Below, in pieces: positions 9,520 to 37,915 of a stretch of DNA of 38,690 nt; position 1 is the stretch's first letter; every line of letters starts with the position of its first letter. A model generated the notes under the pieces. That model saw nothing but the letters and a program-made list of their open reading frames with translations. It was not told the DNA's origin and did no database searches. A program made the position numbers and the translations under genes. Source of the stretch: Bacteroidota bacterium (GTDB taxonomy: Bacteria; Bacteroidota; Bacteroidia; Bacteroidales; B18-G4); assembly GCA_039714935.1 (NCBI GenBank), contig JBDLIJ010000003.1, positions 1-38,690 on the forward strand. Direction: 5' to 3'.

Positions 9520-9574
9520 TTTTCTAGTTTTGTTTGAGATTATCTGAATTTTTGTGAGTTTTTTAAAATCTGTG

Positions 9575-9582
9575 CAAAGTTA
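9575..9582 (-). promoter_or_regulatory. Bacteroidota -7 promoter element
   Basis: TAACTTTG on the minus strand, about 55 nt upstream of ATG 9519. Confidence 0.55.
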
Positions 9583-9601
9583 CAAAACTTTATGTCACTA
9601 A

Positions 9602-12600: not shown

Positions 12601-13342
12601 TAATTACGTATTCATATCCATCTGTTTTATTTCCTGCCTGTGTAGAATAATCAATAACAGGGAGCGAAGAATAATTCATAAGCTGATCTCTGAGGATAGG
12701 GTCAAACCAGCGGCTGCGATAACGATTGTCGCCAAACTGTCCGTTCCCTCCTTCAAAACTTACAGCAAGTTTAACATCACGATAAACGATCAATTCTTTG
12801 GTCACTGGATTGTATTGAAATGGTGTTACACCAAGCATAACGGCATCCACTCCCCTGATGGTAGTTTCTTTGGAAAGCATGAAAGGTTCTGCCGGATAAA
12901 AGGCATCCACTGAAAAGATGCTCTCATCTTTGTTATATACCAACGGGCCATTATCTGTATCCAGTGGGATGCGTGGAGCAGGAGCCACTTCAACATCAGT
13001 ATATGTTTCGGTCCGGTACGACAATACACTCAGGCTGGCTGTGGCCCCCTGAGGTAAAGCAATATACTGTCCGCGGCCGGCAAGATCGGGAGCCCCTTCA
13101 TTATTGGGAATGAAGTTCCCCGGAAGGTGAATGGCTTTCATAGCTGCTCCTTTAACACTCACTTCATCCATAGAAAATTCCTCGATGGAATAGATCACTT
13201 CAAGGTATGTTGATGAAGACTGTGTAAGGTTAAACCCTGCATCTTCCCACGAATCTGTGAAAGTCACAGTCTGGGCTGATAAGGAAAAGAATGTTAAAAA
13301 AGAAATAAGAACTGCTGTAGTAATTTTGTAAAATTTATTCAT
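9602..13342 (-). CDS. C25 family gingipain-like cysteine peptidase with accessory domains and a FlgD-Ig-like T9SS CTD
   Basis: Paralog of 6007..9519 (shared GWQTERWFQIC, HRDHGYEQGWGEP, SINCLTGKYNW); two D..GN.(D/N)G.LD.GE modules; CTD YPNPF...WDGTD...GIY...KKLIRY. Confidence 0.9.
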   Translation of the reverse strand: MNKFYKITTAVLISFLTFFSLSAQTVTFTDSWEDAGFNLTQSSSTYLEVIYSIEEFSMDEVSVKGAAMKAIHLPGNFIPNNEGAPDLAGRGQYIALPQGATASLSVLSYRTETYTDVEVAPAPRIPLDTDNGPLVYNKDESIFSVDAFYPAEPFMLSKETTIRGVDAVMLGVTPFQYNPVTKELIVYRDVKLAVSFEGGNGQFGDNRYRSRWFDPILRDQLMNYSSLPVIDYSTQAGNKTDGYEYVIICPDNPVFTAWADTLKNFRNMQGISTGIYTITEVGGNNTATIENFINDAYDTWTIPPLAFLIMADYGTTGDGILAPIWDYYCASDHIYGDVNGNGMADVVMARMTAQDNTHLENMISKIIDYENNPPTYESFYNPITALGWQTERWFQICSESIGGFFKNEKDKTPIRINEVYAGNPAVDPWSTAPNTNAVLNAFGPNGLGYIPASPSELGGWTGGNATDVNNAINDGAFLLQHRDHGYEQGWGEPGYNNSSLDGLNANDPIFVFSINCLTGKYNWGSECFAEKFHRMEYGALGLIAASEVSYSFVNDTYVWGIYDYMWPEFLPQFGSTITEERGMLPAFANVAAKYFLQNSSWPYNTGNKEVTYNLFHHHGGAFQTLYSEVPQNLTVLHNNVLLTGASSFMVTADSGAFIALSHNGEILGTAESDGTSQTIVITPLIPGDIMDVVVTKQNYYRYHVPVDVIPANMPYVVYNDYDINDIAGNGDGILDYGESILLSLTLENVGLIDALGVDGIISCSNEYVSITDSTAYFGDILSLQTASVTDEYAFDLSSEVGDGELVVFNVEATDGDSIWNSLFAIQAHAPTMEFVDFTLDDAAGNANGRLDPGETVEITCTITNAGSSEAYNVEASLSCSGNQYITIDGGPVMLGDMSGQTTEIAIFTVTATDLTPDGFNAVFTLDIAADMGISGTGEFEMIVGQFPVLILDLDPLNHSGPAMMEAIEDLDLFSAYATSFPDDLSEYKSIFVSLGIIFTGHELSSIESSKLVQYLNAGGKLYLEGRRTWHDDPQQPIHHKFNIEVVLDTWFEYDTISGISGTFTEGMIFEFGGSSPYNDYYIIPEESAFTILTSPNPDYGCAVAYDEGSYKTIGCAFEFGDLVDDVTPSTKAKLMLEYLTFFGGIVTDLPEDQNMADASLGNMYPNPFNDHTSIHFTLEKEMPVSIEIYNIQGKKLTSIIEGNLRAGKHEVNWDGTDNMGNKLSRGIYLCTLRTNSSTTTKKLIRY

Positions 13343-13431
13343 GATTAATATTTTTATTCGTCAGGAATTAGTGATAAACGAGATTAGTTATTTACACATT
13401 TAGTTGATTAGTAGTTGATTTATAATGATTT

Positions 13432-22763: not shown

Positions 22764-23888
22764 ATGAAATATGTTAAAATAGTGTTGCTTTTTGCATTTG
22801 TCGTGATGCTTCTGAAGTTGGGGGCACAAATTCCAACAGGCTATTACAACGGAACAGAAAACATATATGGTGAGGATTTGAAATCCGTTTTACACGATAT
22901 TATCGATGGGCATGATGCACCATCATACAGTGATCTCAGGGATTATATACTTCCGGAATCGGATGAAGATCCGGAGAACGCCAATAACGTCATCCTTTTA
23001 TATACTGGCAGATCTCAGGCAAAAGGAACTTTTGGGGGAGGTGTTAACGACTGGAATCGCGAACATGTATGGGCTAAGTCGCATGGCGATTTCGGGAACG
23101 ACCCGCCATGCGGAACAGATGCCCATATGATCAGACCTACCGACGCTTCGGTAAATGCCGATCGCGGCAATAAAGACTTTGATGATGGAGGACAGCAGCA
23201 CTCAGAAGCAACGGCTTGCTATTTCACAGATTACACCTGGGAGCCTCGTGATGAAGTTAAGGGGGATGTAGCCCGTATGATCCTGTACATGGATGTACGC
23301 TACGAAGGGGATAATGGAGAGTTGAACCTTACAGTGGTAGAGGAGGTGAATACATCACCAGCTCCGGAGCATGGCAGGCTCAGCACTTTGCTCGAATGGC
23401 ATGAAGATGATCCTCCCGATGCTTTTGAGGTGAACAGAAATAATGTCGTGTATTCATATCAGGGGAACAGGAATCCTTTTATTGACCATCCCGAATTTGT
23501 GTATAATATCTGGGGAGAGTCGGCAGAGATATCTGAGCTCCACCCCTCTGGTGGTGTTAAGCATTATCCAAACCCTGTTGTAAATGAGCTACATGTGAGA
23601 TTTCCCTTTCCCTTGGGAAAATCGAAAAAATATCAAATAATAAATGCTGCAGGGATAAAACTGGTGTCTGGTACATTTCAGGCTTCTGACGAATTTGTAA
23701 TTGATTGCAGCAGCTTCCCGGCAGGCATATATATTCTTCAAATCAACAATCAACAATCGACAATCAACAATCAACAATCGACAATCAACAATCAACAATC
23801 GACAATCAACAATCAACAATCGACAATCAACAATCGACAATCGACAATCAACAATGTCTATGTTTCTCCCTTTATAAAAACAAAATAA
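22764..23888 (+). CDS. Secreted endonuclease I family nuclease with a repeat-interrupted T9SS CTD
   Basis: Signal peptide, QIPTGYY, WNREHVWAKS, VNADRGNKDF, WEPRDEVKGDVARMILYMDVRY, QGNRNPFIDHPE; CTD YPNP...AGIYILQI...FIK. Confidence 0.9.
   Translation: MKYVKIVLLFAFVVMLLKLGAQIPTGYYNGTENIYGEDLKSVLHDIIDGHDAPSYSDLRDYILPESDEDPENANNVILLYTGRSQAKGTFGGGVNDWNREHVWAKSHGDFGNDPPCGTDAHMIRPTDASVNADRGNKDFDDGGQQHSEATACYFTDYTWEPRDEVKGDVARMILYMDVRYEGDNGELNLTVVEEVNTSPAPEHGRLSTLLEWHEDDPPDAFEVNRNNVVYSYQGNRNPFIDHPEFVYNIWGESAEISELHPSGGVKHYPNPVVNELHVRFPFPLGKSKKYQIINAAGIKLVSGTFQASDEFVIDCSSFPAGIYILQINNQQSTINNQQSTINNQQSTINNQQSTINNRQSTINNVYVSPFIKTK
23747..23855 (+). repeat. Intragenic heptamer tandem repeat CAATC(A/G)A x15
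   Basis: 15 full units at 23747-23851 (105 nt = 35 codons), mostly in a CAATCAA-CAATCAA-CAATCGA 21-nt period, encoding (INNQQST)n. Confidence 0.95.
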
Positions 23889-24388: not shown

Positions 24389-26665
24389 CTAAGGATTCAC
24401 TTTAATGAAGGTTCTCATTAAAGGTTTACTTCCTTCTGCCTGTATGCGCACGTAATACACACTTTCGGGAAGATTGCTTATGTTCAGTTCAACGGTGTTG
24501 AGCCCTTTTATGAGGGTTTCTTGCTGAATGATCATTTGCTGTCCGAGCTGATTATAAACAGATATCCCGACATTCAGTGCCTTTTCGGCAGAAACATTCA
24601 GCCTGATCTGTGAATTTGCCGGATTGGGATACATGGCGCCGAGCAGTGAGACTTCAGAATATTCTTCAACAGATAAACTTGCGATTCCATTATCGATAAG
24701 AATGCTTATTTCAATGGAAGCATCATCTTCGCTCAGTGTAACCAGAAAACCTGTTGTTTCTATCCCAACCATCTCCGGATATACATAATAGGATCCATAG
24801 GCCAGGGAATTGAACCCGAACAAGCCATTTTCATCTGTATGCACATACATCAGCGGCTCCATGCTTTCACTTAAAAGAAGGATTTCCACACCCTGCATAA
24901 CAACTTTGGTATCGTTGTTATAAACCACACCTGAAATACTTCCGTTTCCTGTTGCAGCAGCAGTGCTTTCCTGCATAATGATATCGTGTACAATCGTGCC
25001 GGGGCATTCTTCTTCTGTAGCAGTCTGTGCTCCTTCCCAATAAATGGCATCGTAATGATATGTTGGTACATATTGTCCGAAATATGAAGATTGTTGTGAA
25101 AGGTCTGCCTGGACGTAAAAACTTAATCCATTACCGTGATTAACATTTTCAAACAAATAATTACCGTTATTATCAAAACTTACTGTTGCAACAGAAACGA
25201 TATTACTATTTATAGCATCAAATGCTGTCAGGTACACCTGGCCGGCATCAGCATGTGTAGCAGTATCAATAAAAACGTTTCCGCCAATACAATAGCTAAT
25301 GTCAGAGATAAAGATGGAATCATAGCTATATGCCACACAAGTGTCGGCAGCGTTTATAATGGACACAGTAGCAAGTGTAACGGCAAATGTTCCTGTAGAT
25401 CCGTAGGTATGCGTAATATCCTGGCCATTTGCAGTGTTTCCGTCCCCCAGATTCCATGTAAATGTTGAATTTGCACTTACATTTAATTCGTCTGAAAATG
25501 CCTCACCATGAAAGTTAAATGTAAAAATGTCAGCACCGGGTGTATGTGTAATAACATTGTAGCAATCCACCGGTGGTGGAACATTAGTTACATTTACATC
25601 GGTACAAATTGTGCTGGTGCATCCGTTGTTTTCATTCGTTATCGTCAGGCATACTGAAAAGATGCCGTCTTTAGGGAAAATATGTGTAGGGTGCTGTTCA
25701 GTTGAATATGTGGAGTCACCAAAGTCCCAGTCCCAAAGTGTTGGATCGCCGGTTGAGAGATCTGTGAAATTGACAGAATATGGTTGAGAACCAAATTCCC
25801 AGGTGTACAGCGCCTGACATGTTGGAGCATTTCCAACATATACATCACGGCAGCTCTCAAATATACAGGTATCCCCACCCAGGAAGACATAAGTAGTTGT
25901 TAAGCATACCGGAATAGTTGTCCCGGCTGGTTCGAAGGTATGAGTGATAGTTTGTCCGGTACCGGTACTTCCATCTCCAAAATCCCAACTGTATTCGATA
26001 GCCTGTTGTGTTGTGTCAAGCATAAATCCTTCAAAATCAAATGTGAGAAGGTCATTGGTAGTATAAGTGAAATCACTTTCACAAATATCACCTCCCGGGA
26101 TGTCGACCAATATTTCCAGACAATAAGTATCATCACAATTGCCTGTGGTATCACTTATGGTCAGGCATACATTATAACTTCCGCCAAGGGCATAAACATG
26201 CATCGGGCTTTGAAGGTTTGAAGTACTACCATCACCAAAATCCCAAGACCATAGTGATGGGCTCCCGGATGAAAAATCTGTAAAATACCAGGTGTCAGGA
26301 GATCCGGGAGAAGGATTCGCAAAAAAGTATGCGGCGCATTCTGGCGGAACCCCAACCTGAATATTCTGACAAGAAGTATCATTGCAGGGATTGCCTAAGG
26401 AATCATAGGTTTCTGTATACAGGCAAACTTCAAAAGTATTGACACCCGGAGATGTATATGTATGTGTTACTACCTTTCCGTTTGCTGTAGCGCCGTCACC
26501 AAGATCCCATGTAAACATAGCCTGGCTCGGCACCACCATAAACCCCTGGAAGGTAAAAGTAACACTATCATGCTGTTGGTAAAGGAAATAATTCTCACAA
26601 TCCTGAGAAGATAAGGATAAACTAAAAATCAATGCAATGAAAGAAACAAAGGTTTTCTGTAACAT
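24389..26665 (-). CDS. T9SS-secreted multi-PKD protein (about 5 PKD domains, conserved PTY module, CTD)
   Basis: Five W(D/N)(F/L)GD PKD cores with Cys pairs, YVPTYHYD...W, G.GSISG.V...TDENG.F.F..L.YG.Y, CTD MYPNP...RTFIKVNP. Confidence 0.88.
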   Translation of the reverse strand: MLQKTFVSFIALIFSLSLSSQDCENYFLYQQHDSVTFTFQGFMVVPSQAMFTWDLGDGATANGKVVTHTYTSPGVNTFEVCLYTETYDSLGNPCNDTSCQNIQVGVPPECAAYFFANPSPGSPDTWYFTDFSSGSPSLWSWDFGDGSTSNLQSPMHVYALGGSYNVCLTISDTTGNCDDTYCLEILVDIPGGDICESDFTYTTNDLLTFDFEGFMLDTTQQAIEYSWDFGDGSTGTGQTITHTFEPAGTTIPVCLTTTYVFLGGDTCIFESCRDVYVGNAPTCQALYTWEFGSQPYSVNFTDLSTGDPTLWDWDFGDSTYSTEQHPTHIFPKDGIFSVCLTITNENNGCTSTICTDVNVTNVPPPVDCYNVITHTPGADIFTFNFHGEAFSDELNVSANSTFTWNLGDGNTANGQDITHTYGSTGTFAVTLATVSIINAADTCVAYSYDSIFISDISYCIGGNVFIDTATHADAGQVYLTAFDAINSNIVSVATVSFDNNGNYLFENVNHGNGLSFYVQADLSQQSSYFGQYVPTYHYDAIYWEGAQTATEEECPGTIVHDIIMQESTAAATGNGSISGVVYNNDTKVVMQGVEILLLSESMEPLMYVHTDENGLFGFNSLAYGSYYVYPEMVGIETTGFLVTLSEDDASIEISILIDNGIASLSVEEYSEVSLLGAMYPNPANSQIRLNVSAEKALNVGISVYNQLGQQMIIQQETLIKGLNTVELNISNLPESVYYVRIQAEGSKPLMRTFIKVNP

Positions 26666-26719
26666 GGGCCCGATATTAAATATGGTTTGTTAATATTTTT
26701 TAATGATCAATCTAGTGGA

Positions 26720-26744
26720 AGACAAAAATAACAGCTAAAGTTGA
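26720..26744 (-). promoter_or_regulatory. Putative ECF sigma promoter (TCAACT-N15-GTCT)
   Basis: Minus strand TCAACTttagctgttatttttGTCT in the 85-nt gap upstream of ATG 26665. Confidence 0.45.
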
Positions 26745-26750
26745 ATGTTT

Positions 26751-28754
26751 TTAGTTTTTTATAAATTTTTTAATCAGGTGTTGTCTTTGACCATCCCAGT
26801 TTATACTCATCATGTATAGTCCCGGACTAAGATTATTGACGGGAATCACTATATTATCCAGTCCCTCTTCAATTATTCTTTCACCATGGTATACACTTTG
26901 CCCGGTCATATTAATGATATTCATGGAAAGCAGTAATGGTTTTCTGGCAGATAATTGCAAAGTAAGATTATTAATCACCGGATTAGGATACAATGAATAC
27001 ATCTGAACTGCTGCATCCGGCTCTTCAAGGCCGAAGGGTGAAGCATTATACATTTCAATTAATATGGTATCGTTAAGGGGGAATTCTTCAGTAATAATAA
27101 CAGATTCGGGCTGTGACCAAATGCCTGCTACATCAGCATGAAGCAGGTAACTTCCCAGTGCGATGCCGGTGAATTCAAAGCCCCCGTACTCATCTGTGAC
27201 AGTCCATTCCAGAGGCGTGGAATTTTGATCTGCCAGGATAACAGGGACTTCGTGGAATGAGGAATGAATTTCAACTCCCTGCCTGTCTCCGGATACGACC
27301 CTGCCACGCAGTATCCCCGGCCCTGGTCCCACATGTTGTACCTCCCAAAGTGAAGTGTTCATTTCATACATGTCATCATTCAGCGTAAAAATATCTGCCT
27401 CCTGCCATCCCATCACTCCCGGGAAATAAGAAGGTATAAAGTCTTCATAGTGGTCTGAGCCCGGACTGAGGCTTATCCTGATCATGTAGTTTAATTCCAT
27501 CATGTTGGAGAACCAGTAATAGCCCAGTTCATGAAATTCATTTGTATCTACAGCTACAACTCCCTGATTGCTTTGCTGCCTGTATAAGATCGCAATGCCG
27601 GTATCCCCTGAGGGGTAAGGGTTATTGATCGGATTTTCACCTATAAAGGCCAATCCGCCTAGCTGGAAATAATCTGCTGTTTGAATGAGCATACAATAAG
27701 AATCACTACATCCCGGATAATTGCTGTTCCAGGTAGTAAGGCATATTTCATAGGTGCCGGCATCATCATACACATGCACAGGATCTTGTTCATGTGAGAT
27801 ATTACCATCTCCAAACTTCCAGAGCCATCCGTCAGGATTTCCGCTGCTCATGTCATAAAAATTGTATTTATACATCACATTACTTGCTGAATCAGCAACA
27901 GCAATAAATTCAGCCTCACAGTGGATAGAATCTTCTAGGACAATTGTTTCACAGATGAAGTGCAGACAAGTCTGGCTTGTGTCACTGTTTTCTACTTTTA
28001 AACATACAAGGTATTCTGATGGCTGTGAATAAGTGTGTACAGGATTCCTTTCATTGGAGATCGTTCCATCGCCAAAATCCCACTCCCAGTCGGTGATATT
28101 TCCTGTTGAAGCATCGTAATAGTGAACCATCAGGGGGTTCTCTTCATCGATGCTATAATTGAATGTAGCTTCACAGTCGAGGGAGTCCGGAATAATCACT
28201 GTTTTACAGATGGAGTCAGAACAAGTGTACAGGCTGTCTGCATGTTCAATGATAAGACAGACATTGTAAGTTCCCGGATCATAATAAGGATGTACGGGAT
28301 GTTGTTCGGTGGAGGAGGTCCCATCACCAAAATCCCATAACCAGGCGTCAGGATATCCTGTTGAGAGATCTGTAAACTGAACGTAAGTTGGAGTTGTTGG
28401 AACGTAGGTTATTTCAAAATCCGCCTGGCATTGCTGTTGTACTACCACAGTATCACAATAAACATCATAGCAGTTGATGTCATCGCTGATAGTAAGGCAG
28501 ACATAATATATCCCGGTCTCACTGAATGCGTGCATAGGATTATATTCTCCTGATGTTGTGCCATCACCGAAATCCCACATCCAGGTGCTGAACTCACCCG
28601 TTGATTGATTATGGAATTGGATAGTTGAATTAAAACCAGGTAATTGTTCCCAGGTAAAATAGCTCGTGCAGTCAAGGGGCCCCGGGCTGTATGCTGTTAT
28701 CCAGAGCGGCAGTGTCGCAAAGATGAATGCTAATGTCAGGATTTTATGCTTCAT
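26751..28754 (-). CDS. T9SS-secreted multi-PKD protein (4 PKD domains, conserved PSY module, CTD)
   Basis: Four W.W.FGDG..S.E..P.H repeats, FIPSYF...W, TDEYG.F.F..I..G.Y, CTD LYPNP...GLY...KKFIKN. Confidence 0.88.
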   Translation of the reverse strand: MKHKILTLAFIFATLPLWITAYSPGPLDCTSYFTWEQLPGFNSTIQFHNQSTGEFSTWMWDFGDGTTSGEYNPMHAFSETGIYYVCLTISDDINCYDVYCDTVVVQQQCQADFEITYVPTTPTYVQFTDLSTGYPDAWLWDFGDGTSSTEQHPVHPYYDPGTYNVCLIIEHADSLYTCSDSICKTVIIPDSLDCEATFNYSIDEENPLMVHYYDASTGNITDWEWDFGDGTISNERNPVHTYSQPSEYLVCLKVENSDTSQTCLHFICETIVLEDSIHCEAEFIAVADSASNVMYKYNFYDMSSGNPDGWLWKFGDGNISHEQDPVHVYDDAGTYEICLTTWNSNYPGCSDSYCMLIQTADYFQLGGLAFIGENPINNPYPSGDTGIAILYRQQSNQGVVAVDTNEFHELGYYWFSNMMELNYMIRISLSPGSDHYEDFIPSYFPGVMGWQEADIFTLNDDMYEMNTSLWEVQHVGPGPGILRGRVVSGDRQGVEIHSSFHEVPVILADQNSTPLEWTVTDEYGGFEFTGIALGSYLLHADVAGIWSQPESVIITEEFPLNDTILIEMYNASPFGLEEPDAAVQMYSLYPNPVINNLTLQLSARKPLLLSMNIINMTGQSVYHGERIIEEGLDNIVIPVNNLSPGLYMMSINWDGQRQHLIKKFIKN

Positions 28755-28769
28755 ATTTAAGTTATTTCA

Positions 28770-30089
28770 TTAAAAGTGAAAATAGATCCCTCCCCTGATG
28801 CCAAACGCATAAGGTGATCTTGCTGAATACTCTGAAGTGCTTGAATACACTGATTTAATGTATTGCCTGTAAAAGGGCTCCAGTGTAAACCTCAGCTGTC
28901 GGTTAATATGGTAGTTCATTCCCAATGAAGCAGAATATTGCCAGTTGCTCCTTAGCCTGTCTGGATAATGCCTTATCACTTCAATCTCATCAACATCGTT
29001 GCCCTGGTAAGGGGCTTCCGGAACATCCTTATATATCTGTATTGAGAATAATATACCCAGTTTCATATCCAGTGAAAAACGGTCCTTCTCAATAATCCTG
29101 TATCCCATTCTGACCGGAATCTGAAGGTATGCATACTTATTTGTATTTTCTTCAATCCTGTAATGCTCAATGCTATCATAGATGCTTTTTAGGCTGGTTT
29201 CAAATAGTATGGAATCAGGATTTTGTGGATCTATGCTAAATGAATTCACATTGACAAAATATCCGATGCTGTCAAATGTTGAGTATGTAATGCCATATTT
29301 TGCACTTTCTGATGTGTAATTGGCACCAAGCCCGCCTTCCATGATAAACCTTGATTTTTCGTAAGCGGCAGTCAGTTCCAGTGAATAATCATTGCGGTTT
29401 TGACCATCGGGATAAATATTAACAGCCGGGCTTACACCAGCACCAAAAAGCAAATCAGCTTTTTTTGTGTAACCATCTTTAATGCTCAGATCAAAAACAG
29501 GATCCTTAAAAGTCCTGGTTTCACCGAATTCCATCTCAATAGGTTCATCAAATTCAATAAGTGCGATTCTGTATTCAAGCAGGTCCAGCTTTTCATATTC
29601 AGGGGATGAAATTTCGGCAGCTTGTGCTTTCTCATCCGAGCTCTTCTCATCCGGATGTTCTGCTTTTTCTATGGCTTCCGTTGACGGCAGAGTTGATCTC
29701 AAATCCGTGGCTTCCGGTGTTTTAATATTGTCATTAGTATTTTCGTTCACCGGTACTGCTTCGGTTTCTGAGTTTATTGCCTTGCTTACAGGATCTTTGG
29801 AAGATTGCTCCTCACCACCGGCAGTAATTTCCGTATGGCTGGCTGAGGTATTTGAGATTTCGGCAGCAGTCTCAGGCATCAGTTTGTCAGAGATGATACT
29901 GGTATTCAAAAATAAAGAGAGTACGCCAATAGCAACGGCAGATACCAGGAACATGAGCATGTTTCCACCGCTTGTTGAAGGAACATGTGACGATAATGAA
30001 GCCCATACACTTTTTGTTGGCTCTATCTTATGCCCGCTCAACGACTCATTAAAGAGTTTGTCAATACTATGCTTTCGTTCATCTTTCAT
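28770..30089 (-). CDS. Putative dual-membrane-spanning anti-sigma factor (N-terminal domain, TM helix, low-complexity linker, OM beta-barrel)
   Basis: IDKLF...L.....EP...VW N-terminus; TM MLMFLVSAVAIGVLSLFL; S/T/E/A-rich linker; PorT-like barrel (YAYLQIP, LEPFYRQY) ending in Phe (GIYFHF); ATGA overlap with the upstream ECF gene. Confidence 0.75.
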   Translation of the reverse strand: MKDERKHSIDKLFNESLSGHKIEPTKSVWASLSSHVPSTSGGNMLMFLVSAVAIGVLSLFLNTSIISDKLMPETAAEISNTSASHTEITAGGEEQSSKDPVSKAINSETEAVPVNENTNDNIKTPEATDLRSTLPSTEAIEKAEHPDEKSSDEKAQAAEISSPEYEKLDLLEYRIALIEFDEPIEMEFGETRTFKDPVFDLSIKDGYTKKADLLFGAGVSPAVNIYPDGQNRNDYSLELTAAYEKSRFIMEGGLGANYTSESAKYGITYSTFDSIGYFVNVNSFSIDPQNPDSILFETSLKSIYDSIEHYRIEENTNKYAYLQIPVRMGYRIIEKDRFSLDMKLGILFSIQIYKDVPEAPYQGNDVDEIEVIRHYPDRLRSNWQYSASLGMNYHINRQLRFTLEPFYRQYIKSVYSSTSEYSARSPYAFGIRGGIYFHF

Positions 30090-30655
30090 TTCGAACGGAT
30101 ATTGGGTTGCAAATTATATTTTTGCTGCAGTTTTTGCTGCAATTGGCGCCTCGCTTTAGCCAGTTGAGATTTTGATGTATTCACAGAAACACCCAACTCT
30201 TCAGCAATCTCTTTGTGCGAATAATTTTCAAATACATACATATTAAACACAAAACGGTACCCATCAGGTAAATCCTGTATCAAGCTTAATAATTCAGATC
30301 GTGAAGGTGCATTGCTGTAAACGCCGTTATCGTCATCATCTCCGGGCATGTCTACTATTTCGTCTACTCCGGATTTAAAATAATGCTTAAGATTAGCATG
30401 ATAATAACTCAATGAAGTATTAATCATAATCCGTTTAATCCAGCCTTCAAAAGAGCCCTCTCCCCTGAATTTATCAATGTTGGAGAATACTTTGATAAAC
30501 CCTTCATGGAGTATATCTTCTGCCTCCTCTCTTTGCTTACTGTAACGCATGCAAATACCAAGCATGGTAGATGCATATTTCTTGTATAGCAAGCCGAAAG
30601 CATTTCGTTCTCCTGATTTGCAGCCTTCTAATATTTCCTGATCTGGAACCATCAA
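30086..30655 (-). CDS. ECF-type RNA polymerase sigma-70 factor
   Basis: Region 2 AEDILHEGFIKVF...GSFEGWIKRIMINT; region 4 LPDGYRFVFNM...YSHKEIAEELGVSVNTSKSQL. Confidence 0.95.
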   Translation of the reverse strand: MMVPDQEILEGCKSGERNAFGLLYKKYASTMLGICMRYSKQREEAEDILHEGFIKVFSNIDKFRGEGSFEGWIKRIMINTSLSYYHANLKHYFKSGVDEIVDMPGDDDDNGVYSNAPSRSELLSLIQDLPDGYRFVFNMYVFENYSHKEIAEELGVSVNTSKSQLAKARRQLQQKLQQKYNLQPNIRSK

Positions 30656-30673
30656 AAAACTTAACTGTTTTTA

Positions 30674-30699
30674 AGACTGTCAGATACACTAAAGGTTGC
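30674..30699 (-). promoter_or_regulatory. Putative autoregulatory ECF promoter (GCAACC-N16-GTCT)
   Basis: Minus strand GCAACCtttagtgtatctgacaGTCT, about 20 nt upstream of the sigma start. Confidence 0.65.
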
Positions 30700-30753
30700 C
30701 TGCATTAATATATAATACTAACAGACATATATTCCTTCAATTTCACCGGCATT

Positions 30754-30791
30754 AAAAAAGGCATCCCTGTAATACTAACGGATGCCTTTTT
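30754..30791. terminator. Bidirectional Rho-independent terminator separating the two ECF cassettes
   Basis: AAAAAGGCATCC...GGATGCCTTTTT inverted repeat with A/T tracts on both sides. Confidence 0.8.
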
Positions 30792-30811
30792 CTAGATTAA
30801 TACTGAAGCCA

Positions 30812-32428
30812 TTAATTGACTTTTATAAACGGTTTAATATGTTTTTCATTTCCTGTCAGCACCATCACACGATACATCCCTGATGAAAATTGGGATAAAT
30901 CAAATTGAACAGTGTGCTTGCCTGATATATAATAATCCATTTGTTTATCTACTACCTGTCCGTCTTGATTAAGAACAAAGAATTGAACCTGAGATGCTTT
31001 TGCAATATTAAACTCAAGCCTGGTCAATGACCGGGCGGGATTCGGATAGAGCTCGCCAAGTCCGGCAATGGTATTCACGGGTACTTCGATGCCATATGAC
31101 ATCTCATCATCATAAACAACAATGCTAAGGTTCTCAATGGAAGGATTACTTGCAGATAATGTAATGCTTGTCGGATAAGTATACTTCCCCGGGACTTCAG
31201 CCAGTACCTTATAAGTGCCATACGGAAGTTCTATAAACTCAAAGCCTCCCTCTTTATCCGATTTGATATATGTAAGGCAATTATCTGCCTCATTAAATAA
31301 TATGACTTCAACATTGTTCAGAGCTGCATTGTCCTTGTCTTCCAAAGTAACGATCCCGTCAATTGTACCATCTCCGCTTGTATATGTATAATTAGGGATC
31401 ATTTGAATATCATAATTATGATTATTGGCAGTAAGGTTTATTGTTTGTGCCTTTGTCCATAATAATTCATCACCGTAATAGGTGGGGAGATATTCTCCGG
31501 CATTTACTGAATTTGTTGAGGGGAATGTCTTAACTTTATAATCACCTTCAATTAAAGCGTGATAGCCATAATAGCCGTACTGATCAAATTCGGTGGTGTC
31601 GATGGGGATGAACTCGTCATTTTCGATTTTATAAAGGTATGCCAGACCGATATCAACAGGAAAATAACCTGCAAAAGCCTGTCCGCCAAAATCAAAATAT
31701 TGCCGCATGCCGGCACCCACTTTTTTCACGATGGTGCTTGTCCTGATATCATTAGTGATCGCATCGTTTGATACAGTAAGTACGACATCATATATGCCTG
31801 CGTTCATGTATCTATGCTGAGGATATCGTTCTGTAGAAGCGGTACCGTCACCAAAATCCCAGAACCAGGAAACAATCCCTTCACCAATGGATTCATCCAA
31901 AAAGAGAAAGCTCAATGAGTCGAGTGTAACAGTATCTTTCAGGACTTCAAAATTTGCCTGAAAGTCGGTTAAAGTATTAGGGTCAATGATCTCAAGGCCT
32001 GTATTCATATGGTATTCAGAATACCAGTTAAACCTGAAGAATTCTTCTTTTTCATATTCTTCACTGAATTCATCAAAGGTGTAGATAATAAGTGACCCGT
32101 CGATAACAGCAGTGCTGATGGTATCGTAGAAAAACCCGTATGCATCCGTATAAGCAGCAAGAAAGTAATTAAATCCCCCGTTGTATTCTGAATTTGATTC
32201 AATGTATACCGCCTGTCCCGCAACAGGTGCCCCGTTTTCAATATTAGTGATCTGCCCTGCCAGGTAAATGTAATTTGCATTTTCCTGGGCGAAGGTTGTT
32301 GTAATGGAGATGACCAGTAGCATCATAAAAGGCAACAGAAGCTTATTAAGCCAGGGCTTTTTCGGGCTGCGGGCCTGCCTCAAGCGGAGCGGAAAACGGG
32401 GGTGATATAGTTTCATGGCCGGGTTCAT
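30812..32428 (-). CDS. T9SS-secreted PKD protein (carboxypeptidase-regulatory-like domain, 1 PKD, PTYY module, CTD)
   Basis: Signal-like hydrophobic stretch, LAGQITN.ENG.P, WFWDFGDG, YLPTYYGD..LW, SDKEG.F.F..L.YG.Y, CTD LYPNP...GMY...KPFIKVN. The start overlaps the upstream stop (TAATG). Confidence 0.87.
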   Translation of the reverse strand: MNPAMKLYHPRFPLRLRQARSPKKPWLNKLLLPFMMLLVISITTTFAQENANYIYLAGQITNIENGAPVAGQAVYIESNSEYNGGFNYFLAAYTDAYGFFYDTISTAVIDGSLIIYTFDEFSEEYEKEEFFRFNWYSEYHMNTGLEIIDPNTLTDFQANFEVLKDTVTLDSLSFLFLDESIGEGIVSWFWDFGDGTASTERYPQHRYMNAGIYDVVLTVSNDAITNDIRTSTIVKKVGAGMRQYFDFGGQAFAGYFPVDIGLAYLYKIENDEFIPIDTTEFDQYGYYGYHALIEGDYKVKTFPSTNSVNAGEYLPTYYGDELLWTKAQTINLTANNHNYDIQMIPNYTYTSGDGTIDGIVTLEDKDNAALNNVEVILFNEADNCLTYIKSDKEGGFEFIELPYGTYKVLAEVPGKYTYPTSITLSASNPSIENLSIVVYDDEMSYGIEVPVNTIAGLGELYPNPARSLTRLEFNIAKASQVQFFVLNQDGQVVDKQMDYYISGKHTVQFDLSQFSSGMYRVMVLTGNEKHIKPFIKVN

Positions 32429-33666
32429 TAAAAGTTAAATAGTAGTCCTGTCCTTAATCCCAGGGAGTAAGGATGGCGGGTGCTTATATATTTACGTTCG
32501 TATTGTGAATTCAGGTAATACCTGAACGTTGGTTCTATTGCGATACTCACCTTATTTGACAACTGGTAAGTCATCCCTGCACTAAAAGCAAATTGCCAGT
32601 ATGTATTTACCCTTGAGGCCATTTGCTGATCGAGTCCAATGATCCTGTCATTGCCTGCATCCGGGTGTGGGATGTTCTCTCTCATAAGAAGTGAGAAAAC
32701 CGGACCACCTTTCACAAACCATCCAAAACGATCAGTTTGCTTATGGAAGCCTACATAAACCGGAATCTGCAGATAGGTGTAATGATTTTTTGTTTTTTCA
32801 AGCTTGTAGGTGCTGATTGAATCGTACACATTTACTACATTGGTATGGTATGTAGGAACAATGGAGCCGTTGTTAAGGGTGTCATAAGTAACATTATACA
32901 CATCATCATAGGATCCCAGGAATTTTTCATAATCGATATTATATTTCCCGTCATCAGATGAGAAGGAAAGTCCCAGTCCGGATTCAATAAAGAATTCATT
33001 CTTAGTCCATTTCAGGCTCGCATCAAAAGTATAACTGCGCTGGTTAGGGATGGAATCATCAGCATAAAAGCTTACCAGGGGAGTAAAAAACATACCCCAC
33101 TGCCATGAAGCTTTGCGGTTATATCTTTGTTCGTCATTGTTCACCCCTGCGAATCTGGGATGATATTTGCTGTCGCGTACACTAATGTTTTTTGTATCGG
33201 CTGTTTTCAGAGAGGTGTGAACAGAGAATGACCTTCTGGATTTCATCTTTGCCAGGTGTGATCCTTCACTGAATGAAGGCGCATAATTCGTATTGGCAGA
33301 TACGGCATGCAGGGTGTAATGTTGTATATCTGAGTCTGATGTTCTGTCTTTTTCGTTTGCAGGAATATTTATATTGACTGAGGGCTGTGCGGTGTTTGAA
33401 AAATTGCTGGTCTCGAGTGCTTCGGGAGCTGCAAACACAATAATGCTGTCAGATTGGGGAGCATCTTTCATAATGCTGAATCCTAAAAGGCCGGAGATGA
33501 GCACAAGGGCGGCCAGCATAGCAAGGTTAACCGGGTTTACAGAACCACCATTCTTCCCATGCAACTCATGATGGACATTGTTCCATACGGTTGCAGGTGG
33601 TTCAGCTTCAAAACCGGAAAACTTGCTTTGAAACAGCGTGTCCAGGTATTTGTTTTCTTCAGTCAC
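32428..33666 (-). CDS. Second putative dual-membrane-spanning anti-sigma factor with a C-terminal OM beta-barrel
   Basis: LDTLF...F..FEAEPP..VW; TM LAMLAALVLISGLLGFSIM; polar linker; YTYLQIP, IEPTFRYY, ends GLLFNF. The likely start is GTG 33666, overlapping the sigma stop, rather than ATG 33702. Confidence 0.75.
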   Translation of the reverse strand: MTEENKYLDTLFQSKFSGFEAEPPATVWNNVHHELHGKNGGSVNPVNLAMLAALVLISGLLGFSIMKDAPQSDSIIVFAAPEALETSNFSNTAQPSVNINIPANEKDRTSDSDIQHYTLHAVSANTNYAPSFSEGSHLAKMKSRRSFSVHTSLKTADTKNISVRDSKYHPRFAGVNNDEQRYNRKASWQWGMFFTPLVSFYADDSIPNQRSYTFDASLKWTKNEFFIESGLGLSFSSDDGKYNIDYEKFLGSYDDVYNVTYDTLNNGSIVPTYHTNVVNVYDSISTYKLEKTKNHYTYLQIPVYVGFHKQTDRFGWFVKGGPVFSLLMRENIPHPDAGNDRIIGLDQQMASRVNTYWQFAFSAGMTYQLSNKVSIAIEPTFRYYLNSQYERKYISTRHPYSLGLRTGLLFNF

Positions 33667-34198
33667 CTTTAACTTTGTTTTTAAGTTTACCCTGAAGGAC
33701 ACCCTTTGCCCGCGATAATTGCGATTTTGAGGTGTTTTCAGAGATATTCAGCATTTCGCCAATCTCCTTATGCGTATATCCTTCAATAACGTTGAGGTTG
33801 AATACCATGCGGTAACCGTCAGGGAGCTCCTGTATATATCCCAGTAACTCTTTGACCGACAACTTGTCGATGGCACTCTCTTCATCATGATTGATGGGCT
33901 CGGTCTGCTCAAGGCTGATGTCTTTCTGGTATTTAACCTTCTTCTTATAAAAGTTAATGGCGGTATTTACCATCGTTTTCCGGATCCAGCCTTCAAGCGA
34001 CCCGTCACTTCTATAATCTTTCAGATACCTGAATACCTTGATAAAGCCTTCCTGCAAAACGTCCTCTGCTTCCATCTGGCTACGTGTGTAACGCAGGCAG
34101 ATGCCGAACATTTTAGGCGCAAATCGCTTGTATAACTTTCCCTGTGCTTTGGGATCATTATCAAGACACCGTACTATGAAGTCCTCATCAAAATGCAT
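33659..34198 (-). CDS. ECF-type RNA polymerase sigma-70 factor (paralog of 30086..30655)
   Basis: AEDVLQEGFIKVF...GSLEGWIRK.MVNT; LPDGYRMVFNL..IEGYTHKEIG..L.ISENTSKSQLSRA. Start taken at ATG 34198 (MHFDEDFI). Confidence 0.95.
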   Translation of the reverse strand: MHFDEDFIVRCLDNDPKAQGKLYKRFAPKMFGICLRYTRSQMEAEDVLQEGFIKVFRYLKDYRSDGSLEGWIRKTMVNTAINFYKKKVKYQKDISLEQTEPINHDEESAIDKLSVKELLGYIQELPDGYRMVFNLNVIEGYTHKEIGEMLNISENTSKSQLSRAKGVLQGKLKNKVKGD

Positions 34199-34424
34199 AA
34201 AACACCAGCACAACACTTCTCAGTATTGGCCGAATATGAATGTTAAAACCCTGATCCAGACATAATTACATGCCGATCAGATATTATTTATCCAAGTAAA
34301 GATAAGGAAATTCTTACTCGAAGAGTATCAAAATCCGGATTTTTTGGTTTTAACATCGCGCGCTATTATTTTATGCATAATGGTTCTTCTTCTATTAAAA
34401 GAACAATATTGCAATATATCCCCT

Positions 34425-34452
34425 AGACAAACTTCAGGTCAAAAAGGTTGCA
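34425..34452 (-). promoter_or_regulatory. Putative ECF promoter (TGCAACC-N17-GTCT)
   Basis: Minus strand TGCAACCtttttgacctgaagtttGTCT, between the RND stop and the sigma gene. Confidence 0.6.
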
Positions 34453-34504: not shown

Positions 34505-37500
34505 TTATTTCCGGAAAATGAAAAATTTGATCTTTCCCAGATAAAGCACATAATACATAGAGGGAACAATAACAAGTGTGAGAAATGTTGCAAAAGTCAG
34601 TCCGTAGATGATGGTCCAGGAGATGGGGCCCCAGAATGCTACATTATCACCGCCGAAATAAATCTGTGCGTCGAATGTTGCAAGGAAAGAGGCAAAATCA
34701 ATGTTGATCCCCATCGCCAGGGGTAATAATCCCAGGATGGTAGTAATGGCAGTTAGCAGCACCGGGCGCAACCTTGTTTTTCCGGCTTGTACAATGCAGC
34801 TGGCAGCATCTTCCAGCGAAAGTGCCGCATCCAGGTTCAGCCCCAGTTCTTTTTTTCGCCGGTTTTTCAGTAGGTCGATATAATCGATCAGCACAATGGC
34901 ATTGTTTACCACTACTCCTGCCAGAGAAACAATCCCGATCCCTGTCATGATCACCACAAAATCCATCCCGCTGATCAGCAGTCCGCCAAATACCCCAATG
35001 GTGCTGAAAAGCACGCTAAACATGATGATGGCAGGTTTTACAATTGAGTTGAACTGTGATACAAGAATGATTGTGATCAGTGATATGGCAATCAGGAGAG
35101 CGTTGATAAGAAAAGCCATTGACTCCTCCTGCTCCTCTTGCTCACCGGTGAACTTATACGTATATCCGGCTGGCATGTCGAAGAAGTTCATGAACGACTT
35201 TAACTGATCGTTTACCTTGGTGGCATTATATCCTTCAATTACATTGGAATAAATAGTAACAACACGCTCCATATCCTTTCTTTTTACGGATCCATAGGTA
35301 GTGCTGTAGGAGACCTCTGCAACAGAAGAGATAGGAACCTGTACGATTTTACCCGTCGACTGGCTTCTGAAGGTGATCATCTGGTTCATCAAGGCGGGGA
35401 TATTGTAGCGGTATTCTTCTTTGAGCCTTAGTTGTATTGGGTATTCGTCTTCACCTACCTTATAGGATGAAATCTCTTTACCGAAGAGTGCTGTACGGAT
35501 TGTGCCTGCAATCTGTGCCGTAGAAAGACCAAAACGCCTTGCTTTATCGCGGTCGATATGAACAATGATCTCAGGCTTTCCAAGGTCAAGGTCAATCTTA
35601 AGCCCTTCAATGCCTTCAATTTTGGAACTGTTCAGGTAGGCCAGGGTGCTGTCAGCTAAAAGCAGTAAGTGGTCGAAGTCTTTTCCAATTATTTCCAGGT
35701 TAATTGGCTTTCCTGAGGGTGGTCCTTCAGCCTGCTTTTCAATGGTAAGCTCCACACCGGCGTATTTGCCAAGTAGTTTATCGCTCAAATCTATCAGAAT
35801 GTCACCGGTATTCACCTCACCTCTTTCTTCAAAGTCGATAAAAGTGATAGTGATCAACCCGCGGAACATCTTTTCAGACAGATCGCCTATATCATTCTCC
35901 AGGCGTGCCCCGGCGCCTACGGTCGTCAAAACGGATTTTACAACCTGATCCCATGGCTTCAGGCTGGCCAGTACATCTTTTTCCAGGGTGTACATAAAAT
36001 CGTTGGTGGCTGTAATATCAGTGCCGATAGGCAGATCGGCAAGGATATTGATATATTTTGGATCACTGGAAGGGAAATTAACGATATTGGGATTACTCGA
36101 GAAGTATAAGTTCATAGTGAGGATGAGCAGAACAAAAGTAGCGCCGATGAAATAAAAAGGATTCCTTTTTCTGAGTGCAAAGCTGATAAACCTCAGATAA
36201 CTGTTTTCCATTCTGACCAGTAAGATTTCCTGGAACCATCGGGCTGCACGGTTCAATGCTATTAAATTCAACAGACCGATTACAGCAAAGGCTGCACAAA
36301 GCGTGCCTGCAGAATTTACACCTCCAAGATAAAATAGTACCGACATCACGATCAACACACCTGCAATTAGCAATGATCTTCTGGGTTTTGGCCTGGGGTT
36401 TTGATCCCCTGTCTGGATGAATGTTGATGATATTACCGGGATGATCACCAGGGCAACAAACAGTGAAGAGGTCAGCACAATGATAAGTGTCATAGGAAGG
36501 TACTGCATGAATTCACCCATTATGCTATCCCAGAAAAGGAGAGGGAAAAAGGCTGCCAGGGTTGTTGCTGTGGAGGTGATGATGGGCACGGCGATCTCAC
36601 CTACGGCATGTTTTGCTGCATCAAGCCTTGCATAGCCCCGGTCCACAAATCGATAGATGTTTTCTACAACGACGATGGCATTGTCGACCAGCATTCCCAG
36701 GGCCAGGATGAGTGAAAACAAAACGATCATATTGATCCTTGAATCCATGAGTCCAAGGATCATGAATGACAGGAACATTGACATCGGGATGGCAAAACCT
36801 ACAAAAAGAGAGTTTCTGGCACCAAGAAAGAAGAAGAGTACCAGAATAACAAAGATCACCCCCATAACCATGCTGTTTTCCAGGTTGCTGAGTTGATCCC
36901 TTACCATCTCCGACTGATCATTTGTGTATTGGATATTAAGATTTGCAGGAAGGGTTTTTGATGCAACTGCCTTGTTGACGATATCGAATACCTTGTCAGT
37001 AGCATTTAACAGGTTCTCCCCGCTTTTTTTGATTACCTGGAGGGATACAACCGGGTGAAGGTCGAGCCGTGTAAAACTCCTGGGCTCTTCAAAGCCAAAG
37101 ATCACCTCTGCAACATCTCTTAAATAAACGATATCCTGATTTTCGCTTTTTACGATGATATCACGGATCTTTCCAGGGTCAGAAAATTCACCAATGATCC
37201 TGATCGATCTGCGGCTGCTTCCCAGTTTTATCTCACCCCCCGACATGGAAATATTTTCGAATGCGACGGCATTTTCGATATCACTGAAGCTGAGTTCAAA
37301 GATGGCCAGCTTGTGCATATCCACATTTATCTGTACTTCTCTTTCATTGATTCCGGTGATATTAACCTTGGAGATTTCGGATACCCTTTCTATCTCGTCT
37401 TCAAGAAATGCGGCATAACTCTTCAATTCGTTTATGCTGTAATCGCCGGAAAGGTTAATGTTCATGATCGGGAACTCTGAAAGATCAAGGTCAATGACCA

Positions 37501-37915
37501 CGGGATCCATCAGCAAATCGTCCGGCAGGGCACTTTTTGCCTTATCCACGGCATCTTTTACTTCCTGCAGCGCATCATCAATGGCAATGTTGGTATTAAA
37601 TTCAACGAAAATAGCTGAGATATCCTGGGTGGAGGTAGAGCGGATCTCTTTTACCCCTTTAGCTGATTCAATCTCTTTTTCCAGGGGACGTGTGATCAGG
37701 TTTTCAATGTCGAGAGGAGGGTTGCCGGGGTATGTTGTCTGAACAAATATGGTAGGCCATACCAGGTCAGGGAATAATTCCTTGGGAAGAGAACGGTATG
37801 AATAAAAGCCAAATCCGAGCAGGATTATGATCATCAGGAATACGGTATTCTTATTCCTCAGGGCCCAGGAGCTGAGCTTAAACTCCCTGATAACTTGTTT
37901 TTCCTTGATCTCCAT
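34505..37915 (-). CDS. RND efflux transporter permease (AcrB/AcrD/AcrF family)
   Basis: 1136 aa; LPKELFP, GMLVDNAIVVVENIYR, TTLAAFFPL, GVVVNNAIVLID, RLRPVLLTAITT..GLLPLA. Confidence 0.95.
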   Translation of the reverse strand: MEIKEKQVIREFKLSSWALRNKNTVFLMIIILLGFGFYSYRSLPKELFPDLVWPTIFVQTTYPGNPPLDIENLITRPLEKEIESAKGVKEIRSTSTQDISAIFVEFNTNIAIDDALQEVKDAVDKAKSALPDDLLMDPVVIDLDLSEFPIMNINLSGDYSINELKSYAAFLEDEIERVSEISKVNITGINEREVQINVDMHKLAIFELSFSDIENAVAFENISMSGGEIKLGSSRRSIRIIGEFSDPGKIRDIIVKSENQDIVYLRDVAEVIFGFEEPRSFTRLDLHPVVSLQVIKKSGENLLNATDKVFDIVNKAVASKTLPANLNIQYTNDQSEMVRDQLSNLENSMVMGVIFVILVLFFFLGARNSLFVGFAIPMSMFLSFMILGLMDSRINMIVLFSLILALGMLVDNAIVVVENIYRFVDRGYARLDAAKHAVGEIAVPIITSTATTLAAFFPLLFWDSIMGEFMQYLPMTLIIVLTSSLFVALVIIPVISSTFIQTGDQNPRPKPRRSLLIAGVLIVMSVLFYLGGVNSAGTLCAAFAVIGLLNLIALNRAARWFQEILLVRMENSYLRFISFALRKRNPFYFIGATFVLLILTMNLYFSSNPNIVNFPSSDPKYINILADLPIGTDITATNDFMYTLEKDVLASLKPWDQVVKSVLTTVGAGARLENDIGDLSEKMFRGLITITFIDFEERGEVNTGDILIDLSDKLLGKYAGVELTIEKQAEGPPSGKPINLEIIGKDFDHLLLLADSTLAYLNSSKIEGIEGLKIDLDLGKPEIIVHIDRDKARRFGLSTAQIAGTIRTALFGKEISSYKVGEDEYPIQLRLKEEYRYNIPALMNQMITFRSQSTGKIVQVPISSVAEVSYSTTYGSVKRKDMERVVTIYSNVIEGYNATKVNDQLKSFMNFFDMPAGYTYKFTGEQEEQEESMAFLINALLIAISLITIILVSQFNSIVKPAIIMFSVLFSTIGVFGGLLISGMDFVVIMTGIGIVSLAGVVVNNAIVLIDYIDLLKNRRKKELGLNLDAALSLEDAASCIVQAGKTRLRPVLLTAITTILGLLPLAMGINIDFASFLATFDAQIYFGGDNVAFWGPISWTIIYGLTFATFLTLVIVPSMYYVLYLGKIKFFIFRK

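Follow-up and report, generated by a model that had tools for sequence, protein, structure and literature searches.

Tandem cassettes of ECF sigma, Dma-like anti-sigma and type IX secretion cargo genes in a Bacteroidales genome: predicted sigma/anti-sigma operons with a surface protein as output

Which signal reaches an outer membrane barrel that forms part of an anti-sigma factor, and what does the released sigma factor then switch on? The Dma/Das family, published in 2024, raises both questions; the two Dma papers, which cover Bacteroides only, leave open the signal of the barrel and the roles of most Dma regulons. Here we consider a 38,690-nucleotide (nt) stretch of a Bacteroidales genome (contig JBDLIJ010000003.1 of GenBank assembly GCA_039714935.1, positions 1 to 38,690; hereafter the window), in which genes of this kind stand next to genes for secreted proteins. 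Seven co-oriented genes on the minus strand, between positions 24389 and 34216, form two paralogous cassettes, each with the order extracytoplasmic function (ECF) sigma factor, Dma-like anti-sigma barrel protein, type IX secretion system (T9SS) cargo of type A. The locus thus raises the question of what the cargo is to its sigma factor and its barrel. The answer that we favor, and consider rather likely, is that each cassette would be an autoregulated, envelope-spanning sigma/anti-sigma operon of the Dma/Das type whose dedicated output is a T9SS-secreted surface protein.

Gene order and domain make-up of the cassettes

A first model-made reading of the letters (here, the sequence-only reading) had described two consecutive cassettes in the same order, tightly coupled and split by a terminator. 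We recovered all seven genes on the same strand and at the coordinates given in Table 1, and the coupling is as tight as described: neighboring genes overlap by 8, 1 and 4 nt, 15 nt separate barrel2 from cargo2a, and an 85-nt gap follows between cargo2a and cargo2b. The 8-nt overlap, that of sigma1 and barrel1, presumes that barrel1 starts at an in-frame Val codon at 33666 (GTG, read from the translation); its start in the list of open reading frames (ORFs) is 33702, and the start at 33666 aligns best with barrel2. The terminator has a 13-nt loop and a predicted free energy of -18.7 kcal/mol (z, -3.75; 0 of 200 shuffles equally stable), and it comes only after cargo1, that is, 3' of the whole of cassette 1. 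Sequence identity amounts to 46% between the sigma factors, 27% between the full-length barrel proteins (E = 1e-42) and 26 to 30% among the cargo proteins; judged by these sequences, the duplication is old, not recent.

The genome holds a third complete cassette, divided between two contigs whose ends overlap by ~30 nt (C246:1818-4290 and C213:3-1679; loci L036 and L037). A possible fourth (C5:2-1028; L040) consists of a sigma gene and the N terminus of an anti-sigma gene and is cut by the contig end. The three complete cassettes are presumably old paralogs with separate inputs and outputs.

Both sigma factors of the window carry the Pfam domains Sigma70_r2 and r4_2. Their orthologs are 77 to 87% identical for sigma1 (L001 to L013) and 77 to 85% identical for sigma2, and the sigma factors encoded beside Dma-like proteins without cargo are 46 to 48% identical to sigma1, the same level as sigma2. 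The stop codon of the sigma gene and the start codon of the barrel gene overlap in almost all loci surveyed.

The barrel proteins, 412 to 439 amino acids (aa) long and each encoded between sigma and cargo, have the architecture that the sequence-only reading had ascribed to them. Both window barrels begin with a hydrophilic, conserved domain of 43 to 47 aa that contains the motif D.LF...EP...VW, continue with one predicted transmembrane (TM) helix and a polar linker of more than 100 aa, and end in a barrel-like region with a terminal Phe. The TM helix, called from Kyte-Doolittle hydropathy windows, is a single hydrophobic 19-mer (hydropathy, 2.3 to 2.4) that starts at residue 44 to 48 and lies within residues 44 to 66; no other window exceeds 1.6. 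Since this segment stands ~45 residues in, behind a conserved domain, the layout is not that of a Sec signal peptide. The linker, predicted to be disordered from its composition, spans 111 aa or 142 aa in the window and is 67 to 68% polar there (111 to 147 aa and 67 to 73% polar or charged overall). Its conservation, 0.35, is the lowest among the long regions scored, and only short barrel turns and loop L1 are as low. The C-terminal ~235 residues hold eight amphipathic segments, with short turns alternating with longer loops. In one related locus (L012:9001-10064) the barrel2 ortholog is present as two ORFs of 137 and 217 aa, by frameshift, linker deletion or assembly error.

Relatives of these proteins extend to barrels that stand beside a sigma gene without any cargo. 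The N-terminal motif (I/L)D.LF......(E/P)P...W is common to the window barrels and to such cargo-less relatives that match PF13568, and hhalign matched the profile of the cargo-linked barrels to the profile of those relatives with a probability of 100% (E = 9e-40, 213 columns). Barrel2 has 72 homologs, many carrying PF13568 or PF13505, and its neighbors in the ESM Atlas are Bacteroidota clusters with PF13568; the protein itself scores just under the Pfam cutoffs (OMP_b-brl, 25.3 versus 28.7 bits; OMP_b-brl_2, 21.8 versus 27 bits). The barrel protein of the third cassette, barrel3, exceeds the PF13568 cutoff (30.8 versus 27 bits); its N-terminal P..W motif is duplicated, its cytoplasmic part is 81 aa long, and its hydrophobic segment starts at residue 82. 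A PDB profile search with the barrel alignment returned chance matches to the linker only. None of the three barrel proteins has an NCBIfam match at E 0.01, the PorT/SprT model NF052311 included, and barrel1 and barrel2 have no PorP/SprF match in Pfam at the same threshold. PorT identity, a candidate prompted by the NCBI name "PorT family protein" on some relatives, was rejected on that result. Classical transducers with FecR and a TonB-dependent receptor are likewise not what the window encodes, since its proteins have no FecR or STN match in Pfam.

[quoted passage not shown] Judged against that published description rather than against a Dma sequence, the regulatory core most probably belongs to the Dma/Das family, and the anti-sigma factor probably reaches from the inner to the outer membrane.

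The third gene product of each cassette is a predicted T9SS substrate. All three cargo proteins of the window have PKD stretches (1, 4 and 5, respectively), CarboxypepD_reg and Por_Secre_tail above the Pfam cutoffs, as well as the type A sorting domain TIGR04183 above its cutoff. Their N termini are hydrophobic, and the genome encodes the T9SS translocon SprA (SprA_N, 571 bits, contig C172); by signal peptide, C-terminal sorting domain and the presence of a T9SS in the genome, they are classed as type A cargo. The constant part of the cargo is a module of ~210 aa immediately before the sorting domain, a pair of transthyretin/CarboxypepD_reg-like sandwiches. A PKD protein had been named as the third member of the cassette, and this holds in the window but not as a conserved feature: the PKD stretches vary in number and are missing in many relatives, which carry other passengers instead, and it is the tandem sandwich module that is conserved. 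Among ~152 sorting-domain ORFs of the genome, a full copy of the module occurs in four (E < 1e-60; next best, 5e-7), and all four sit in cassettes, namely, cargo1, cargo2a, cargo2b and the cargo of cassette 3. Used alone as a query, the module matched only SdrD-like and beta-trefoil fragments. Cargo2b is found in some relatives only, with orthologs in L001, L002, L007 and L011 and a displaced one in L015.

To what extent does this arrangement hold outside the window? Surveyed across gene neighborhoods, as the sequence-only reading had suggested, the triplet shows strong conservation, and its genes are duplicated and passed on together. Every one of the 12 related loci with enough flanking sequence keeps the double cassette in synteny, including L015, whose barrels are only 26 to 29% identical; a cargo2a ortholog follows barrel2 in 15 of 15 related loci, and barrel1 was found in 21 of the 22 genomes of the window's family. 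In 14 of 20 loci with more distant barrel homologs, which come from other families of the order, the next gene downstream is cargo-like, and a second sample of distant loci gave 33 of 39 assessable ones (L074, which is cut, is not among the 39). The two samples together span ~30 GTDB families of the order. Approached from the other side, a scan of 201 genomes belonging to the order showed a barrel match at most 9 kb upstream, on the same strand, for 67 of its 95 strongest module matches (median distance, 1.1 kb). In a 300-genome sample of the phylum, the barrel profile found only weak C-terminal matches outside the order, with cargo in none of the eight loci inspected. Outside the order, the module search yielded two complete triplets (L142 and L143), both from a different order within the class, along with two ambiguous loci and 16 loci without the pair.

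A split variant of the cassette also exists. Here the sigma gene is followed by a gene for a FecR-type anti-sigma factor, then by one for an STN-domain protein whose barrel matches the Dma-like profile, and then by one for a beta-helix cargo with the sandwich module and a sorting domain (L033:3423-9879, minus strand; L116:2779-9061, plus strand; L101, L117 and L118). L033 and L116 are of one genus, and L101 is cut at a contig end.

Promoter footprints and the cargo as predicted output

If the cargo is an output of its cassette, its sigma factor should leave a readable mark in the DNA. Both cassettes are preceded by a candidate promoter of two blocks, the layout usual for ECF promoters. Upstream of sigma1 it reads CATGCAACC-N17-GTCT, and the blocks ATGCAACC and TTGTC are invariant in nine species, with a variable spacer. 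Upstream of sigma2 it reads GGCAACCTTT-N13-AGTCTT; GGCAACCTTT and AGTCTT, again with a variable spacer, recur 33 to 47 nt upstream in 10 of 11 sigma2 genes of the same family that were scanned, and likewise in three loci of other families (L015, L054 and L056). Within the second cassette, the gap before cargo2b holds a degenerate copy of the motif, and the corresponding gaps of L001 and L007 hold a perfect CAGGCAACCTTTT...AGTCTTAATA. Module genes that lack a cassette, or are cut off from one by a contig end, bear the motif as well: it lies 57 to 83 nt upstream of 6 of 12 such genes, where we estimate that ~0.4 would be expected. Orphans that carry it at this distance, with no sigma-barrel pair in their vicinity, are L121, L123, L126, L127, L129 and L131.

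The ~225 nt between the promoter and sigma1 form a highly conserved leader that may be a structured RNA. In an alignment of nine species, its consensus fold comprises 38 pairs, with a long-range 12-bp helix that encloses two hairpins, and with a fourth hairpin in addition; 93.7% of the alignment cells are paired, six pairs show compensatory change, and none of 500 shuffles scored as high. A search of Rfam assigned the leader to no family (best match, E = 0.37). Cassette 2 is without a comparable leader.

The sequence-only reading had offered the PKD cargo as a possible output of its cognate barrel. The putative promoter before the sigma genes, before cargo2b and before orphan module genes, together with the tight coupling of the operons, supports a role as output. 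Published work on Dma proteins adds to it: residues 1 to 40 of Dma1 bind Das1, the adjacent NigD2 ranks with the three genes induced most strongly (PMC10927553), and Dma2 mainly induces its own operon and its neighbors BT_1555 to BT_1557 (PMC13088901). Given the placement and conservation of the promoter and this induction of own operons and neighbors by Dma1 and Dma2, the cargo is most likely an output of the sigma factor.

We therefore picture each cassette as follows. By analogy with Dma1 and Reo, residues 1 to 43-47 of the barrel protein would hold the ECF sigma factor at the inner membrane, and the single TM helix and the presumably disordered linker of more than 100 aa would tie this domain to an eight-strand-like barrel in the outer membrane. 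A signal that inactivates the barrel protein would free the sigma factor, which would then read GCAACC-N16/17-GTCT before its own gene and transcribe sigma, anti-sigma and the coupled cargo gene. The free sigma factor would also read the copies of the motif before cargo2b and before orphan genes for cargo of the same type. The cargo would leave the cell through Sec and the T9SS and, being of type A, would probably be attached to the cell surface.

Several results weigh against this picture. The promoter motif is short; its tight pattern occurs 13 times in the genome compared to 8 times in a reversed-sequence control, and the pattern with loose spacing occurs 22 times, near rough expectation, without enrichment by count; since the genome-wide count is weak by itself, the promoter evidence that we use is the placement of the motif and its conservation between species. 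Five of the 39 assessable distant barrel loci (L077, L082, L086, L087 and L088) are without a cargo-like gene, and a sixth (L083) has a sorting domain only; the cargo-less barrels are the most distant from the query, and their neighbors are unrelated genes, such as SLT with UvrA, or RmuC. Orphan cargo genes exist too: among the 28 module matches left without a nearby upstream barrel, we inspected 16, of which 11 proved to be true orphans, while contig ends truncate 4 and a sigma-barrel pair of greater divergence accompanies 1. With regard to the barrels, barrel1 matches nothing in Pfam or NCBIfam, and barrel2 stays below threshold on both Pfam barrel models. Finally, a profile search aimed at Dma1 of B. 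thetaiotaomicron gave no named Bacteroides protein among the 120 matches listed.

A wider regulon of T9SS cargo under the cassette sigma factors is possible. Ten of the 13 tight-pattern sites lie at most 350 nt upstream of an ORF, and these ORFs include Por_Secre_tail proteins on contigs C58 and C149, a C25 peptidase and, on C38, a protein with 18 PKD domains. The promoter pattern, often with a CA(G/T/A) prefix, precedes other large surface or T9SS genes (C38:10969, C58:14399, C76:3988, C149:843, C44:14366 and others; L089 to L097). Their products are the 18-PKD protein, two sorting-domain proteins of the BNR type, the C25 peptidase and a protein combining metallophosphatase, PKD and GEVED domains.

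Possible contact between cargo and barrel

A second question is whether the cargo, once outside, acts back on the barrel encoded beside it. The co-phylogeny of sigma factor, barrel and cargo, a check put forward with the sequence-only reading, bears on this point. Across 65 triplets the tree distances correlate (barrel/module, r = 0.81; sigma/barrel, 0.74; sigma/module, 0.56), and barrel and module retain a partial correlation of 0.71 once sigma is controlled for (a value reached in 0 of 2000 permutations), compared to -0.12 for sigma and module with barrel controlled for; the respective values in a thinned set of 53 triplets were 0.66 and -0.07. Correlations of this kind are inflated by shared descent and by unequal saturation of the three proteins. 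Within the barrel protein, the two ends differ in what they follow: the N-terminal part tracks sigma (r = 0.69; partial, 0.43; partial with cargo, 0.14), and the barrel part tracks cargo (r = 0.75; partial, 0.62). In loci with two cassettes, assignment of the paralogs by sigma, by barrel and by cargo is concordant in 78 of 78 pairs of such loci, most of which are kin.

Cargo-linked barrels are set apart from cargo-less ones by the signature YVDS..DP.TG..YYT..V.VYDS, located between predicted strands 3 and 4, a position that should correspond to extracellular loop 2. Strands and loops were assigned by reading the hydrophobic alternation in the alignment; on that assignment, the conservation of the signature is 0.56, compared to 0.39 to 0.64 for the strands and 0.34 to 0.44 for the other loops. 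Since barrel and cargo co-vary in their divergence beyond what sigma accounts for, and since the signature falls in a predicted surface loop, contact between the two is plausible.

One possibility is that the module, once secreted, docks on its own barrel at the conserved surface loop, such that the pair would act as a sensor, much like a hemophore with its outer membrane receptor in Has-type signaling, or that docking would report successful secretion, with paralog-specific feedback in either case. We entertain this proposal tentatively. It agrees with the finding that the conserved part of the cargo is the module beside the sorting domain and not the passenger, with the confinement of the module to cassette genes within the genome, with the partial correlations and the different tracking of the two ends of the barrel protein, and with a subfamily signature as conserved as the strands. 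The split variant keeps the link of barrel and cargo (L033, L116 and L101), and a precedent for T9SS cargo in signaling can be found in PorA of Porphyromonas gingivalis (PMC7712824). Against docking stand the kinship and saturation differences behind the distance correlations, the derivation of strands and loops from hydrophobic alternation instead of a model, the 11 orphans among 16 inspected module genes without a nearby barrel, and, for the split variant, the shared genus of L033 and L116 and the truncation of L101 at a contig end.

A fuller version of docking is more speculative still. Here the module would dock on loop 2 of its own Dma-like barrel, making a T9SS-exported protein the input of a Dma-type anti-sigma factor; the variable passenger, PKD or other, would attach to a ligand or surface outside the cell, an event that the barrel would relay through the tether to the sigma factor. 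Each cassette would then be a private loop of sensor and output, and the split form with FecR and STN would be the same device in two pieces.

Alternatively, the barrel could be mainly a dedicated helper for export or anchoring of the adjacent cargo, like PorP/SprF for type B cargo or PorT for the T9SS, with the anti-sigma part reporting jammed or missing cargo. Cognate pairs of barrel and cargo genes are known for type B T9SS cargo. The adjacency of barrel and cargo is fixed in the cassettes, and the NCBI name of some PF13568 relatives points in the same direction. We nevertheless regard a mainly export-related role as unlikely: the cargo here is of type A (TIGR04183), a class not known to need a private barrel, ~148 other sorting-domain ORFs of the genome do without one, the barrels lack PorT/SprT and PorP/SprF matches in the searches described above, and module cargo exists as orphans.

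That the barrel protein is no anti-sigma factor at all, its hydrophobic segment being a cleaved signal peptide and the remainder a plain outer membrane protein co-transcribed with an ECF sigma gene, would fit its lack of any Pfam anti-sigma domain but is very improbable, given a hydrophobic segment that begins at residue 44 to 48 (82 in barrel3) behind a conserved hydrophilic domain, far from a Sec layout, an N-terminal part whose motif is conserved in distant relatives and whose divergence tracks sigma, the overlapping codons of the two genes in almost all loci and the sigma binding described for the equivalent N terminus of Dma1 and Reo (PMC10927553).

Known systems and the surroundings of the cassettes

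How do the cassettes, read as autoregulated Dma/Das-type operons with a surface protein as output, compare with systems already described? As in Dma/Das of B. thetaiotaomicron and Reo/EcfO of B. fragilis, the ECF sigma gene directly precedes the anti-sigma gene, whose product joins a short binding domain at the N terminus to a single TM helix, a long disordered tether and a barrel of the OMP_b-brl_2 type, features that in the window are predictions. Both Dma/Das and the window belong to Bacteroidota, and in both the downstream neighbor is placed in the same operon or regulon, by published induction for Dma and by sequence for the window. The window differs in its third gene, which encodes a T9SS type A cargo with the tandem sandwich module and not a NigD-like or DUF4943 protein, in the subfamily-specific conserved insert YVDS...VYDS of its barrels, and in the occurrence of the cassettes as tandem paralogs. 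The roles of Dma in Bacteroides, vesiculation and oxidative stress, need not hold for these cassettes.

The window also resembles FecI/FecR/FecA and Has, in which an outer membrane sensor controls an ECF sigma factor through an inner membrane anti-sigma factor, with self-induction; in the Has system, a secreted protein is both co-receptor and inducer. The split variant with FecR, an STN barrel and cargo, present in relatives, is a further similarity. Unlike in these systems, the predicted sensor and anti-sigma factor of the window are one polypeptide, no TonB-dependent receptor or FecR domain is present, and the secreted protein would leave by the T9SS. Like PorP/SprF-type barrels, which are private to a cognate type B T9SS substrate encoded beside them, the window barrels have their cargo next door; they differ in that the cargo is of type A and that the barrel, probably of the OMP_b-brl_2 type, continues a predicted anti-sigma domain and has a sigma gene ahead of it. 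In the PorA and PorXY-SigP pathway of P. gingivalis, a surface protein with a sorting domain is implicated in signal relay to an ECF sigma factor (PMC7712824). That relay passes through a two-component system and controls genes of the T9SS machinery, whereas it involves neither a barrel-fused anti-sigma factor nor an operon with the sigma gene.

The sequence-only reading had left room for the triplet to be known already, and this is the case in part. A three-gene das-dma-X operon, das2-dma2-BT_1557, has been published. Our literature search, which did not extend to supplementary ECF21 neighborhood data, found no report of Dma/ECF21 pairs co-encoded with T9SS cargo, the sole co-mention being an entry in a reference list, and the main text of the ECF reclassification (PMC7826278) has no passage on ECF21. 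The type of inhibitor, the Dma/Das core, is thus known, and what appears to be new is a large environmental subfamily fixed to T9SS cargo. This subfamily is spread over ~30 families of the order and occurs sporadically in a second one, and it combines one conserved kind of output gene with a readable promoter, a predicted surface loop that is conserved and a secreted partner that co-varies. These features add up to a concrete, testable candidate ligand for a Dma-type barrel. They would link ECF signaling to the T9SS secretome at the level of the individual cargo, compared to the secretion machinery in PorXY-SigP, and they supply a rule by which to annotate the hundreds of barrel proteins labeled "hypothetical" in metagenome-assembled genomes of Bacteroidales.

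Table 1. Coordinates of cassette genes, candidate promoters and RNA features in the window (HMM, hidden Markov model)
Feature	Position	Strand	Basis
ECF-type promoter of cassette 1, putative (GCAACC, 17 nt, GTCT)	34425-34451	-	Motif search and nine-species alignment
Conserved leader of ~225 nt, promoter to sigma1, possibly structured RNA	34199-34424	-	Alignment, consensus fold
sigma1, ECF sigma factor (ORF-list start GTG 34216; ATG 34198 more likely)	33659-34198	-	Pfam, TIGR02937
barrel1, predicted Dma-like anti-sigma factor, eight-strand-like barrel	32428-33666	-	Architecture; HMM of the local barrel alignment, E 8e-113
cargo1, predicted T9SS type A cargo: signal peptide, N-terminal region, 1 PKD, module at residues 242-450, sorting domain	30812-32428	-	Pfam, TIGR04183, module HMM E 3e-76
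Intrinsic terminator between cassettes, predicted	30754-30792	-	13-bp stem and U-tract
ECF-type promoter of cassette 2, putative (GCAACC, 16 nt, GTCT)	30674-30699	-	Motif search and comparison of regions upstream of sigma2
sigma2, ECF sigma factor (start 30652/5)	30086-30652	-	Pfam, NCBIfam
barrel2, predicted Dma-like anti-sigma factor	28770-30089	-	Architecture, homologs, Atlas clusters with PF13568
cargo2a, predicted T9SS type A cargo: 4 PKD, module at residues 360-580, sorting domain	26751-28754	-	Pfam, TIGR04183, module HMM
Degenerate ECF promoter motif, within the 85-nt gap ahead of cargo2b	26720-26744	-	Sequence; orthologous gaps
cargo2b, predicted T9SS type A cargo: 5 PKD, module at residues 456-670, sorting domain	24389-26665	-	Pfam, TIGR04183, module HMM

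A gene for an AcrB-type resistance-nodulation-division (RND) pump (34505-37915, minus strand) lies immediately upstream of cassette 1 in the same orientation and is outside the conserved block as far as this was inspected. On the other side, an endonuclease I with a sorting domain is encoded at 22764-23888 on the plus strand, and six more T9SS cargo genes stand in a row at 2-16425 on the minus strand, three of them for gingipain-like C25 peptidases (one truncated at the end of the window) and the others for an M14 carboxypeptidase, a PKD protein and a BNR/GEVED protein.

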